A stretch of 64,000 nt of DNA from Oscillospiraceae bacterium (GCA_021202155.1 JAJQDP010000019.1:51084-115083), one strand, 5' to 3'; counted from the first letter of the stretch, positions 27,667-51,898 are shown. Translations and numbers: made by a program. Notes: generated by a model from the letters alone, not told the origin.

Positions 27667-29712
27667 ATGAACTTAAAATTCAAAAGTATACTTTCAGTAA
27701 TAATAGCCCTCAGCATGGTCTTTATGCTTTCGGGCTGTGCAGAATCTGTCAGCGACAGCGACAGTGATTCATCTGTCACCGACTCAGCGGTTGGTGCGGC
27801 ATTTCTCATTTCCTCCACTCTATCGGGAACTGTCATCGAGGTTTCAGGCTATGAGATAGTTCTATCTGTAGCACTTTCATCAGGCAATTCTGACATGATG
27901 GGCATGGGCGGAGATATGCAGATGGGCGACATGAACGGCATGGGCGGAGAAGGCGGAGACGTCCCCTCCGACGTTCCCTCTGACAATGGTCAGGGCGGCG
28001 GAGATGGCGAAGGCGGCGATAAGCCGGACGACATTCCTTCCGATGACGGACAAGGTGGAGGAGACGGTGGAGACGCACCCGACAAGCCTGATGGTGAAGG
28101 CGGAGAAGGCAGAGCAGAGCCTACATCTTCAACCGGCGACTACGAGATTGAACTTCTCGCCGACACAGAAAAAGCTACTGAGCCCGAAGAAAGCTCTGAC
28201 ATCACCTTCACGGTCTCACTCATAGTCATGGACGAATCGATAATAACAGATAGTGACGGCAACAGCCTCACTCTCTCTGATATAGAAGCAGGGGACACCC
28301 TGACATTTACCGTTGATGACTGCGGCGAAATCACTTCAATAATAGTCGGTAGTGAAGCCTCCGATATGGGAAATCTCTCCAATGGTGGCGGCATGGGTGG
28401 CGGCTCATCCTCTGGCGTTGACAGCTACGACGCAGTCGTAACCTACACCGAGGACGGAACATACTCAAATATGGATTACACCTCAACCGGGTCTGACGAA
28501 AATGCAGTTCTTGTCACCTCAGGCGACGTCACTATCTCTGACAGCACTATCTCAAGAATATCCTCAGACTCCACCGGTGGAGATAACTCAAGCTTCTACG
28601 GTGTCGGAGCAAGCGCACTTGTTACAAGCGGCACTTTGAGAATCACCAACACAACCATCGCCTCCGACTCAGCAGGCGGTGCAGGAGTTTTCGCCTATGG
28701 CGACGGCGTTGCATACGTCAGCGACACCGAAATCACCACCGAGCAGGACACCTCGGGCGGCATCCATGTCGCCGGCGGCGGAACGCTCTATGCCTGGAAT
28801 CTGACAGTAAGCACCTCCGGCGAGTCCTCGGCGGCAATCAGAAGTGACCGCGGAAGCGGAACTATGGTCGTCGACGGCGGAACTTACACCTCCAACGGCA
28901 CCGGTTCACCAGCAGTCTACAGCACCGCCGACATCACCGTTGCTAATGCGACTCTGACAGCTAACTCCTCCGAAGCCATCTGCATCGAAGGTCTCAACTC
29001 CATCAGACTCTTTGACTGCGACCTCTCCGGCAGTATGAAGGACAGCTCGCAGAACGACTGCACCTGGAACGTCATCGTTTATCAGAGCATGTCCGGCGAC
29101 TCTGAGGTTGGTAACGGTAACTTCTACATGATAGGTGGCACTCTGACAGCCAACAACGGCGGCATGTTCTATACCACCAACACCGAAAGCACCTTCCTTA
29201 TCAGCGGAGTTGACATCACCTATGCCGAAGACAGTGAATTCTTCCTCAAGTGCACCGGCAACTCCAACCAGCGCGGTTGGGGTTCAACGGGCTCGAACGG
29301 TGCCGACTGCTCCTTCACAGCTATCTTGCAGGAGATGGAGGGCGCGGTCATCTACGACAGCATCAGCAATCTTGACTTCTACATGCTCGAAGGCAGTGTC
29401 CTGACCGGGTATTTTGTTGACGACGAATCGAATGCCGGAAGCGGCGGCAACGGCGAGTGCAACGTCTACATCGACTCCACCTCGACCTGGGTTGTCACGA
29501 ACTACAGCACAGTGACAAACCTCTACTGCGAAGGAACTATCGTTGATGAAGACGGCAAAACCGTCACCATCCTCAGCTCCGACGGCACAGTCTACGTCAC
29601 CGGCGACAGCACCTACACCATCACCGTAGAGACCTATTCCGAGACCGCCGACACCACCGGCGCAAGCACCCTCATCAGCTTTGATGACTACTCCGTAGAC
29701 AATCCCTTCTAA
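27667..29712 (+). CDS. surface lipoprotein with a Gly/Asp-rich repeat linker and a C-terminal beta-helix-like repeat domain (hypothetical carbohydrate-binding/active protein)
   Basis: Lipobox MLSGC. Repeats of the type GQGGGDG(E/G)GGD(K/A)PD. The C-terminal ~430 aa are rich in T/S/G with periodic (V/I)T(V/I)xN motifs. Confidence 0.7.
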   Translation: MNLKFKSILSVIIALSMVFMLSGCAESVSDSDSDSSVTDSAVGAAFLISSTLSGTVIEVSGYEIVLSVALSSGNSDMMGMGGDMQMGDMNGMGGEGGDVPSDVPSDNGQGGGDGEGGDKPDDIPSDDGQGGGDGGDAPDKPDGEGGEGRAEPTSSTGDYEIELLADTEKATEPEESSDITFTVSLIVMDESIITDSDGNSLTLSDIEAGDTLTFTVDDCGEITSIIVGSEASDMGNLSNGGGMGGGSSSGVDSYDAVVTYTEDGTYSNMDYTSTGSDENAVLVTSGDVTISDSTISRISSDSTGGDNSSFYGVGASALVTSGTLRITNTTIASDSAGGAGVFAYGDGVAYVSDTEITTEQDTSGGIHVAGGGTLYAWNLTVSTSGESSAAIRSDRGSGTMVVDGGTYTSNGTGSPAVYSTADITVANATLTANSSEAICIEGLNSIRLFDCDLSGSMKDSSQNDCTWNVIVYQSMSGDSEVGNGNFYMIGGTLTANNGGMFYTTNTESTFLISGVDITYAEDSEFFLKCTGNSNQRGWGSTGSNGADCSFTAILQEMEGAVIYDSISNLDFYMLEGSVLTGYFVDDESNAGSGGNGECNVYIDSTSTWVVTNYSTVTNLYCEGTIVDEDGKTVTILSSDGTVYVTGDSTYTITVETYSETADTTGASTLISFDDYSVDNPF

Positions 29713-29737
29713 CATATAATACCTTCCTAAAAGCGAG

Positions 29738-29764
29738 AAGAGCGGCTCAACCCGCTCTTTTTGC
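29738..29764 (+). terminator. rho-independent terminator
   Basis: aagagcgg-ctcaac-ccgctctt followed by tttg. Confidence 0.75.
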
Positions 29765-29783
29765 ATTTTTCTAAAAAAACTAC

Positions 29784-29812
29784 TTTACAAATGCGACAAA
29801 GTGTGATACAAT
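29784..29812 (+). promoter_or_regulatory. sigma-A-type promoter with extended -10
   Basis: TTTACA, a 17-nt spacer and TGaTACAAT. Confidence 0.6.
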
Positions 29813-29817
29813 ACAAG

Positions 29818-29976
29818 TGCCACATAATCTAATATTTTGTCACATTGCGAGAGCCTTTTACTTTGGTAAAAGGTGTGTTCTTCTCGTACTCGGTTTCTCG
29901 TAATGTGAAATAGGGATTGTGTGGCAACAATGAGGGATCCACTTTTTCGTGCGTCTCTTATTGGGGCGCATTTTTT
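29818..29976 (+). ncRNA. candidate structured RNA (sRNA or cis-regulatory leader): nested P1/P2/P3 hairpin plus intrinsic terminator
   Basis: P1 is gccacataatc (29819-29) with gattgtgtggc (29915-25), 11 bp. P2 is tcacattgcgaga (29840-52) with tctcgtaatgtga (29896-908), 13 bp. P3 is ccttttac-tttg-gtaaaagg (29854-73). The terminator is tgcgtctc-ttatt-ggggcgca plus T6 (29950-76). Confidence 0.5.
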
Positions 29977-30009
29977 ATTGCGTAGAATATGATTGAGGAG
30001 GGCACCTAT

Positions 30010-30975
30010 ATGGAGCTAAATGATTTGAAAGAATACTTGAGATTGATTGTTGAGATGGAGAAGGATATTTTTCTTAAAGAAGAATTAATGGCTGATTTGA
30101 AAACTAAAATTAAAATAGAAGAACCATACATCAGTTATCAAATAAAGAAACCTCACGAACCTAAGTATCTTGAAGAACATTCATCGGGAATTATAACAGC
30201 TTCAGGGTGGATGGCTGCTATTCTTGGAATCTTTGGTATTTTACTCATAATAGCAGATAGCTTTTTTGGCGTGTTATTAACAATCGGTGCGGGAATTCTT
30301 GGATGCCTTTTTTTATCATGGAAAGATGTTAAATCTGCTAACGAAAAAAAGCGAAGCGATTATTTCAGACAACAAGAAGAATATAATAAAGAAGTAAAAG
30401 AAGATAGTATTAGAAGGAAGAAAGTACAAGATGAGAAAGAAGCATTATGTCATACCTTAAATATAGTTAATAAGAAAGTTAAAGAAAGCAAGGGAATTCT
30501 TGCAAAATTTTATTCGAAAGACATTGTATTTCCTAAATATCGAAATTTCGTAATGATGTGTTCAATATACGAGTACATATGCTCAGGTCGTTGTACCACT
30601 CTTGAAGGTCCGGATGGTGCATACAATATCCTTGAAATGGAAATCAGAATGGATCGAGTTATTGTACAGCTCGATAGGGTTCTGAGTAGTCTTAATCAGA
30701 TTCAGGCAAATCAGTACATGTTATGCGATGCGATTCAGGAAGGTAATCGAATTCGGGGACAGATAATGGATAATACTAATCAGATTATTTCAAGCATGAA
30801 TAGAAACGGTAAGAAACTTAGTGCCGTGTTGGAAAGCATCGATAAGAACTCCGCGTTGACAGCTTACGCCGCTGAAAGGTCGCAAAAGGAGTTAGAATAT
30901 ATGAACACCATGAACTACTTGGAAAGCAAATGGAGTGGTACTGGCTTCAATCAGCCGCCGTCTTGGCGATCATAA
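30010..30975 (+). CDS. AT-rich orphan membrane protein: N-terminal coiled coil, two TM helices, ~220-aa C-terminal helical domain (hypothetical)
   Basis: GAGGAGG lies 8 nt upstream of the ATG at 30010. TM hairpin ITASGWMAAILGIFGILLIIA / FFGVLLTIGAGILGCLFLSW. Lys/Glu-rich heptad-like segments. Codon usage (tta, aaa, gaa, ata) is unlike the neighbouring genes. Confidence 0.7.
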   Translation: MELNDLKEYLRLIVEMEKDIFLKEELMADLKTKIKIEEPYISYQIKKPHEPKYLEEHSSGIITASGWMAAILGIFGILLIIADSFFGVLLTIGAGILGCLFLSWKDVKSANEKKRSDYFRQQEEYNKEVKEDSIRRKKVQDEKEALCHTLNIVNKKVKESKGILAKFYSKDIVFPKYRNFVMMCSIYEYICSGRCTTLEGPDGAYNILEMEIRMDRVIVQLDRVLSSLNQIQANQYMLCDAIQEGNRIRGQIMDNTNQIISSMNRNGKKLSAVLESIDKNSALTAYAAERSQKELEYMNTMNYLESKWSGTGFNQPPSWRS

Positions 30976-47119: not shown

Positions 47120-47126
47120 CTTAGCA

Positions 47127-47283
47127 ATAAAACAGGGGAGCTTGCAAGGGCAGGCTGAGAGGGAGCGCGTATCGCTCCGACCCGTAACCTGATTCGGATA
47201 ATGCCGACGTAGGGCGTATAGCACATGGGTGCTTTGCATTCAGAGTGCAATTTGCTTGCTCCGTCGCGACGGGGCTTTTTTGT
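47127..47283 (+). promoter_or_regulatory. TPP (THI-box) riboswitch with terminator expression platform
   Basis: aggggagc...ggCTGAGAgg...gACCCgtaACCTGATtcGGATAATGCCgaCGtAGGG matches the THI-element core. A ccgtcgcgacgg hairpin plus T-run follows at 47261-47283. Confidence 0.9.
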
Positions 47284-51654: not shown

Positions 51655-51898
51655 AGTAAGAAATGGCTTTGACGAAGAGCGGCAGGGGCAATTTTCTTTA
51701 AAGAGAGGCGGCGGTTGGTGCGAGCTGTCAGGATAATCCCAAGTCGGTAGCTTCTGAGCCGACGGAAAGAAAGGTAAGTCCAAGTAGAATCCGTCCGTAT
51801 GGCGTACGTTATACGCATTAAGAGGCAGAAAGTATTTTCTGCAATTTGAGTGGTACCGCGGGTTATCTCGTCTCAGGAATATTCTGAGGCGATTTTTT
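51655..51898 (+). promoter_or_regulatory. T-box leader (Val specifier) with terminator/antiterminator
   Basis: AGAGAG and GGTTGGTGCGAG Stem-I elements. Candidate specifier GTA followed by A at 51774-77. T-box sequence aatttgaGTGGTACCGCGg at ~51843-61. Terminator tcgtctcag-gaatatt-ctgaggcga plus T6. Confidence 0.9.

Follow-up and report, generated by a model that had tools for sequence, protein, structure and literature searches.

What does a strongly folded RNA do when it is bracketed by its own promoter and intrinsic terminator and stands directly ahead of a protein-coding gene? The question is raised by a 64,000-nucleotide (nt) stretch of DNA from an Oscillospiraceae bacterium (GCA_021202155.1, JAJQDP010000019.1:51084-115083), referred to in its full length as the window, whose coordinates are used throughout. 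Such an element occupies positions 29784-29976 of its + strand and is followed by an open reading frame (ORF) for a 321-amino-acid (aa) protein. A first-pass annotation of the window had listed the promoter, one long irregular hairpin of three helices (P1-P3) and the terminator, and had left the choice between an unclassified riboswitch or attenuator and a type III toxin-antitoxin (TA) module. Every feature that it listed is present to within 1-2 nt, and the former of its two readings is upheld, with compensatory changes in every helix, a covarying platform of terminator and antiterminator, and no matching family in Rfam 15. We put at roughly three in four the probability that 29784-29976 comprises a promoter and a ~160-nt cis-acting leader RNA that controls the downstream gene by conditional intrinsic termination. 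The element is one copy of a widespread leader-RNA family and represents a new class of transcription attenuator or riboswitch-like leader.

The hairpin described in the first-pass annotation is real: the 174-nt RNA has a predicted folding energy of -71.6 kcal/mol, versus -38.5 +/- 3.5 kcal/mol for shuffled sequences (z = -9.35), and none of the 200 shuffles was as stable. Its helices correspond to three nested inverted repeats, P1 (29818-29829 with 29915-29926, 12 nt, 92% complementary), P2 (29840-29852 with 29896-29908, 13 nt, 92% complementary), and P3 (29854-29861 with 29866-29873, 8 nt, 100% complementary, UUUG loop). P3 is formed by strands a and a', and a bulge, J, separates a' from the 3' strand of P2. 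Beyond the hairpin, two further strands, b and X, precede the terminator (Table 1). The minimum-energy fold contains a helix that the first-pass annotation had missed, an antiterminator in which b (29928-29938) pairs with b' (29953-29963) in competition with the terminator, whose 5' strand and loop are overlapped by b'. Nor had it fully recognised the remaining helix, an anti-antiterminator of 14-17 base pairs (bp) in which a' and the 5' part of J pair with b and X (a'J:bX) and which is found in 29 of 29 representatives. Comparison across the family establishes, at the level of sequence, all six helices, their mutual exclusivity, and the spacing between promoter and P1.

Pairing was counted on a MAFFT alignment (A4) of 25 diverse family members that was not fitted to any structure. 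In this alignment, 97% of the P1 cells are paired and 9 of the 12 pairs show a compensatory change; the corresponding values are 95% (94.8%) and 3 of 10 for the terminator, and 88% and 8 of 15 for a'J:bX, in which the J:b columns 84-88 with 153-157 contain 1-6 doubly changed sequences per column. The observed values were not attained in any of 500 shuffles, and with slid partners the paired fraction fell from 93% to 37%-59%. Since MAFFT shifts the register of the antiterminator between lineages, duplex energies were used for this helix instead of pair counts. Sequence alignment fails for P2 as it does for the antiterminator, and cognate strands were therefore compared with non-cognate strands. 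Cognate duplexes are the more stable for P2 (-20.2 vs. -7.0 kcal/mol), P1 (-15.9 vs. -7.6), a'J:bX (-16.6 vs. -12.5), the antiterminator (-15.9 vs. -12.2), and P3, that is a:a' (-8.9 vs. -6.4), with permutation p <= 1e-4 in all five comparisons. The cognate P2 strand is the best partner in 24 of the 25 members, and where a' has changed, its P3 partner a and strand X both show matching changes. In the window itself, the antiterminator and a'J:bX duplexes reach -18.2 and -14.6 kcal/mol, respectively. The search for relatives and compensatory changes in P1-P3 that the first-pass annotation had proposed thus yields conserved homologous loci and covariation that supports all three helices.

As long as the hairpin is intact, antiterminator and terminator are near balance across the family, and the mean lead of the terminator is 3.5 kcal/mol; in the window, it trails the antiterminator by 2.4 kcal/mol. 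When the 5' strand is removed (window, L094, and L100), the predicted fold consists of a'J:bX and the terminator, as it does in natural mosaic alleles with mismatched P1/P2. These features bear on a passive alternative, in which a 5' stabiliser hairpin and a constitutive partial terminator would damp and stabilise the expression of acquired genes without any switching. P1 does begin at the predicted +1, like known 5' stabilisers, few unpaired bases of the hairpin are conserved, the genes behind the leader have unrelated functions, and neither a ligand nor a regulator is evident. However, a passive device needs neither the additional covarying helices a'J:bX and b:b', exclusive of each other and of the terminator, nor near-balanced antiterminator and terminator energies throughout the family, and we regard it as improbable.

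Table 1. Features of the leader RNA and its downstream gene, in window coordinates.
Feature	Coordinates	Strand	Sequence	Partner or details
Sigma-A type promoter	29784-29812	+		-35 TTTACA (29784-29789), 17-nt spacer, extended -10 TGaTACAAT (29804-12)
P1 5' strand	29818-29830	+	UGCCACAUAAUCU	Partner 29914-29926; family-conserved sequence UGC-N-ACAYAA
5'-sided internal loop P1/P2	29831-29839	+	AAUAUUUUG	AAUA-like motif, found in most members
P2 5' strand	29840-29852	+	UCACAUUGCGAGA	Partner 29896-29908
P3 hairpin	29853-29874	+		Strand a 29853-29861, UUUG tetraloop 29862-29865, strand a' 29866-29874
Bulge J (21 nt, 3' side)	29875-29895	+		5' part (~29877-29883) plus a' complementary to b and X
P2 3' strand	29896-29908	+	UCUCGUAAUGUGA	Seen as inverted repeat, in fold and in duplex energies
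P1 3' strand	29914-29926	+	GGAUUGUGUGGCA	Followed by conserved RCAA linker (ACAA, 29927-29930)
Strand b	29928-29938	+	CAAUGAGGGAU	Purine-rich, GAGGGAU in window; pairs with 29953-29963 (antiterminator) or with J (part of a'J:bX)
Strand X	29940-29947	+	CACUUUUU	Complementary to a' segment AAAAGGUG (29868-29875); b and X form ~15 bp with a'J
Intrinsic terminator	29949-29976	+		Stem 29949-29957 with 29963-29971, 9 pairs, 5 of them G-C; loop UUAUU; U6 29971-29976
Gene under proposed control	29996-30975	+		Shine-Dalgarno GAGGAGG 29996-30002, ATG 30010, ORF 30010-30975, 321 aa

The promoter score (10/12) is the joint top in a 6-kb scan, and the site is the only one at 10/12 with an extended TG. The family members examined likewise have an extended -10 (TRTGnTAnAAT), 6-8 nt ahead of P1. 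The predicted transcription start in the window, ~29816-29819, coincides with the beginning of P1. The internal loop between P1 and P2 varies among members (AAUAUUG, AAUAGUG, GAAUAAC, AAAUA, UGAAUA, and others), and the P3 loop is UUYG or UUCG-like family-wide, although the search pattern itself selected for such loops. As the first-pass annotation had noted, the bulge, of 21 nt in our analysis, contains a second copy of a short direct repeat, TTCTCGTA (at 29881 and 29895, the first copy spanning 29881-29888 inside J). The accompanying idea that this copy could swap for the 3' strand of P2 is lineage-specific and was rejected for the family: a comparable repeat of 6-7 nt occurs in only two other members and most parsed members have no repeat beyond chance, a rough count, as the automated bulge parse worked for about half of the members. 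A leader-peptide attenuator was also rejected, since no reading frame is conserved through the hairpin; the 20-codon upstream ORF pointed out in the first-pass annotation (29930-29992) is confined to near-identical relatives, and most members have no AUG at that place.

The same element lies upstream of a homologous ORF in three congeneric, syntenic genomes (L002, L003/L005, and L006), and also at a non-syntenic congeneric locus, L001, which carries the closest ORF relative. Among these close relatives, P1 and the last 62 nt are 95%-98% identical, whereas the ORFs are only 41%-65% identical. P2 differs in sequence in each of them with its pairing kept, and the changes in L003 keep or strengthen pairs in both the antiterminator and the terminator. 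Two loci of distant homologues, L028 and L037, carry diverged copies, in which P1 is rewritten, too. Two DNA motifs common to the window and L028 were used as a pattern for a metagenome scan, which returned at least 120 loci, mostly on human gut and rumen contigs; about 118 of the 120 listed loci appear genuine, L077 and L131 being chance matches. The same pattern also occurs in 14 viral contigs. From the 25 diverse members, a covariance model (R1) was built, which found 97 + strand copies with 55-148 bits in 100 of the listed metagenome loci, including a second copy in L162, and no second copy of the leader in the window. Family members are also present in rumen metatranscriptome contigs, including sequence past the terminator; the runs concerned, which belong to two relatives, show some read-through but no transcript ends. 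Sequencing runs containing the window itself were looked for and none was found. An Rfam scan, suggested as a check in the first-pass annotation, returned no family: none of the 4227 models of Rfam 15, among them T-box, PyrR, and c-di-GMP, reached its gathering threshold at the element when the whole window was scanned, the best sub-threshold matches at E <= 10 in the element region had E-values of 3.8-7.8 (manA-II and L20_leader, at ~14 bits, are noise), and no family recurred at E <= 1 among 14 member loci. The scan does work on the window, in which it detected a T-box leader (105 bits, 51660-51878) and a thiamine pyrophosphate (TPP) riboswitch (55 bits, 47124-47232), both ordinary and on the + strand. 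A description of the motif was not found in the literature searched, where the supplement of a human-microbiome RNA catalogue was searchable in part and may hold an unnamed listing. As delimited by these searches, the leader family spans gut and rumen Clostridia (Oscillospiraceae, Lachnospiraceae, and Ruminococcus-like metagenome-assembled genomes) and has no Rfam entry.

Many of the conserved pairs are G-U, with U-G at terminator columns 175/196 in 17 of the 25 sequences and at P1 columns 10/136 in nine, and the selected molecule is thus the + strand RNA. This argues against an element acting at the DNA level, that is, an inverted repeat serving inversion or recombination, either as a phase-variation switch like fimS or cwpV, an inversion switch of C. 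difficile, or as a cassette attachment site. P1, P2, and P3 are indeed DNA inverted repeats, and the cargo gene is far more diverged than its flanks. Moreover, one locus of a human-gut lineage (L071-L190; e.g. L115 8307-8462, L080, L081, L088, and L174) has mosaic leader alleles upstream of a gene for a 551-aa extracytoplasmic function (ECF) sigma factor fusion; each allele combines one of three types of 5' half with one of two types of 3' half, and the junction is the conserved P3 core. In the most frequent allele, P1/P2 are mismatched and the predicted fold is the terminating state. However, the G-U pairs can form only in the + strand RNA, model R1 gives only 17-34 bits on the other strand compared to 55-148 bits on the + strand, the promoter keeps a constant distance, and the platform has a terminator at its centre. 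In addition, the pattern in inverted orientation had no matches versus 14 in normal orientation, a comparison made in the viral contigs only, and no recombinase is linked to the element. A DNA-level function is therefore very improbable, but recombination at the conserved P3 core may occur as a side effect.

In most members, a same-strand ORF with a Shine-Dalgarno sequence follows ~10-150 nt past the U-tract. Elsewhere, the genes behind the leader are unrelated to the window ORF and encode an M23 peptidase, CotH, a CHAP/ricin/dockerin protein, zinc-ribbon/ankyrin proteins, a DnaJ-domain protein, small HIRAN proteins, and the ECF sigma fusion of a very common human-gut lineage. Several IMG/VR contigs classed as viral (L191, L194, L197, L198, and L202-L204) have a leader variant with the sequence ACCACACUAAUUU before genes for small proteins of 112-162 aa, one 162-aa form of which has a HIRAN domain match. 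Small helical proteins with a common LFNAITD motif are encoded behind the leaders of two unrelated contigs, L074 and L162 (726-880). L162 is also the locus with tandem leaders (254-414 and 497-658), each with its own -35 and -10, before a gene for a ~50-aa protein, and its second copy departs from both search motifs (loop CCUCGG, platform UUUUUCAGUGCGC).

The first leader of this tandem is directly followed by the second promoter and leader, with no ORF between, which would fit a stand-alone, trans-acting small RNA gene of ~160 nt whose downstream neighbour is expressed by incidental read-through. A strong promoter and a strong terminator bracketing a stable RNA, as well as the 100-200 nt that separate the RNA from the next ORF in a few members, point the same way. 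Yet nearly every copy has a same-strand ORF behind it, often with the Shine-Dalgarno sequence 10-40 nt past the U-tract, and no conserved single-stranded seed region is evident. Furthermore, the antiterminator and a'J:bX covary within each locus, indicating that the terminator decision is selected in cis, so that a free-standing small RNA seems an unlikely explanation.

In its structural model, the protein encoded in the window is helical throughout; it has a coiled coil at the N-terminus and a transmembrane hairpin of two helices, and its C-terminal region is conserved. This AlphaFold2 model is confident (predicted local distance difference test score, pLDDT, 81) and has no fold match in the PDB at E < 0.07. 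No Pfam, NCBIfam, or PADLOC family matched the ORF, including ToxN, AbiQ, and CptN, and a PHROGs search gave weak matches to generic membrane segments and nothing else. The gene is no orphan, as the first-pass annotation had called it, having 176 homologues at E <= 1e-3. Its GC content is 33%, compared to ~51% in the flanks, and it is 41%-45% identical to its syntenic counterparts in L002, L003, and L006, while the flanking genes are 85%-97% identical; the closest relative (65%-68% identity) is the one in L001. The cargo gene thus looks, from these sequence comparisons, exchangeable behind a conserved leader.

Upstream of the leader in the window lies a gene (27667-29712) with its own terminator at 29733-29764; its 681-aa product has an N-terminus resembling a signal peptide and a long Gly/Asp/Ser stretch of low complexity. 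The relatives have an additional gene for a 120-aa protein, absent from the window, between this large gene and the leader (L002 3290-3730, L003 3290-3730, and L006 ~2300-2725). Before this gene, a similar promoter and upstream terminator occur a second time. Its absence from the window suggests loss or gain by recombination between these duplicated signals.

For the window gene, the second reading offered by the first-pass annotation has to be considered, a type III TA module as in ToxIN, with the RNA as an antitoxin neutralising the ORF protein and the terminator setting the ratio of RNA to protein. Promoter, structured RNA, terminator, and ORF follow one another much as in toxIN, and the ORF is AT-rich, foreign-looking, and has no assigned function. 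Type III antitoxins are tandem direct-repeat arrays processed by the toxin, a ToxN/AbiQ-type endoribonuclease. In contrast, Tandem Repeats Finder returned 0 rows at 29700-30100, where the sole direct repeat is one 8-nt pair, and the ORF, without a match to ToxN, AbiQ, CptN, or PADLOC families, has the predicted structure of a helical membrane protein, for which no fold match is significant. Neither are RNA and gene inherited together, as the leader is present in 7 of 69 sources (68 ORF-homologue loci and the window) and missing from the other 62, and the same RNA heads M23 peptidase, CotH, CHAP-dockerin, ECF sigma, DnaJ, and HIRAN genes. Finally, a covarying antiterminator implies that read-through is regulated and not merely leaky. 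A TA module is hardly credible on these grounds.

For the leader as a conditional terminator, we propose a chain of mutually exclusive helices, leading from a:a' (P3) via the anti-antiterminator a'J:bX and the antiterminator b:b' to the terminator, in which strand b would be the pivot and P3 would be locked by P2 and the 5'-terminal P1. A closed 5' hairpin would hold a'J inside and leave b free. Being made before the 3' half of the terminator, free b would then pair with b', and RNA polymerase would read into the gene. If b were instead captured by J, with the pairing extended via a':X, the terminator would form and transcription would stop at the U-tract. We give even odds to this assignment, by which the closed hairpin is the read-through state and its opening, or the capture of b, the terminating state. 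The 5'-terminal hairpin probably also protects the read-through mRNA from 5' decay, by analogy with the 5' stem-loops known to do so in Bacillus subtilis.

Our best guess for the trigger is a trans-acting factor that recognises the conserved region of P1 and the internal loop and controls the closure of the hairpin. P1 is conserved in sequence, its A-U pairs at columns 7, 12, and 13 essentially never flip, and it starts at the predicted +1, all of which hints at recognition by a factor. A protein is a possible, if tentative, candidate, and a small molecule a rather doubtful one; an intrinsic kinetic or temperature effect appears unlikely. If a small molecule were the signal, the leader might be a new riboswitch class whose 5'-terminal hairpin, with its AAUA loop and CUCY bulge, binds a small signalling molecule, e.g. 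a nucleotide second messenger, and ligand binding would decide between capture of b by the bulge and formation of the antiterminator. This more specific reading is speculative and in our view rather unlikely.

Several observations weigh against conditional termination as proposed here. The 5' hairpin has a stability of -34 to -57 kcal/mol, with which the a'J:bX state cannot compete at equilibrium, and with an intact, straight P1-P2 stem the linker of 4-6 nt seems too short for b to reach J, for which P1 would have to open or the asymmetric internal loop to bend sharply. The rod-like shape of the RNA and its scarcity of conserved unpaired bases would be unusual in a metabolite aptamer. The downstream genes share no obvious function and thus give no pointer to a ligand. 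Furthermore, the metagenome set was selected by two fixed motifs, so that motif invariance is there by construction and the diversity of the family is underestimated, and the metatranscriptome evidence consists of short assembled contigs that may include DNA. The transcription start, the occurrence of termination, the default state, and the trigger of the switch are what we infer from sequence.

A real switch would make this an abundant regulatory RNA of gut Clostridia that has so far gone without a name; more than 100 copies are counted, a lower bound from a selective scan. The leader stands before genes for surface enzymes, secreted proteins, and the ECF sigma factor of a very common human-gut lineage, as well as prophage-borne genes. 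Once identified, its input would reveal a regulon together with its signal in bacteria poorly accessible to genetics. Should the leader prove to be a riboswitch, it would coordinate dispersed genes across human-gut and rumen Clostridia, those for cell-envelope proteins, secreted proteins, and sigma factors as well as prophage-borne ones. The design, in which helices compete in a chain of four steps under the clamp of a ~28-38 bp hairpin at the 5' end (P1 and P2), is an unusually deep stack, and how the nascent RNA escapes from so stable a fold is a mechanistic question in itself. In addition, a conserved leader before fast-changing, low-GC cargo suggests a promoter-plus-attenuator cassette for the exchange of accessory genes, and the covariance model can flag such leaders in gut and rumen genomes.

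Parts of this design are found in known systems. Like the 5' stabiliser stem-loops of aprE and ermC, the leader has a stable hairpin within a few nt of the 5' end; stabilisers of this type are not known to have a built-in competition of terminator and antiterminator, or to belong to a conserved family whose alternative helices covary. With ToxIN, it shares the order of promoter, structured RNA, intrinsic terminator, and ORF, but differs in having an antiterminator and neither a repeat array, an endoribonuclease toxin, nor co-occurrence of RNA and gene. Transcriptional riboswitches also are conserved, covarying, structured leaders with a terminator/antiterminator platform and an occasional tandem arrangement, as in L162. 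The mixed cell-envelope, secreted, and sigma-factor genes downstream are reminiscent of the c-di-GMP-I/II riboswitches, which control assorted surface and secreted proteins in Clostridia. Unlike these, the present RNA is rod-like, without a multi-helix junction or obvious pocket, and has no Rfam 15 match and no known ligand.

The three-tier attenuators of B. subtilis, such as the PyrR-controlled pyr leaders and the L20-controlled infC leader (PMC1865079), offer a further comparison. No sequence or model similarity connects the two, the sole L20_leader match being on the minus strand with 14 bits against a threshold of 58.7, and the genes downstream of the present family are neither ribosomal nor pyrimidine genes, with no binding protein known here. 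What they share is the logic: a leader terminator, an antiterminator sharing the terminator's 5' strand, and an upstream anti-antiterminator capturing the 5' strand of the antiterminator, with the decision made during transcription. In the infC leader, moreover, long-range pairing between 5' and 3' segments sets the state, a likeness to the window leader. To these tiers, the present family adds a fourth, P3, clamped at the 5' end of the RNA by the ~28-38 bp of P1 and P2.

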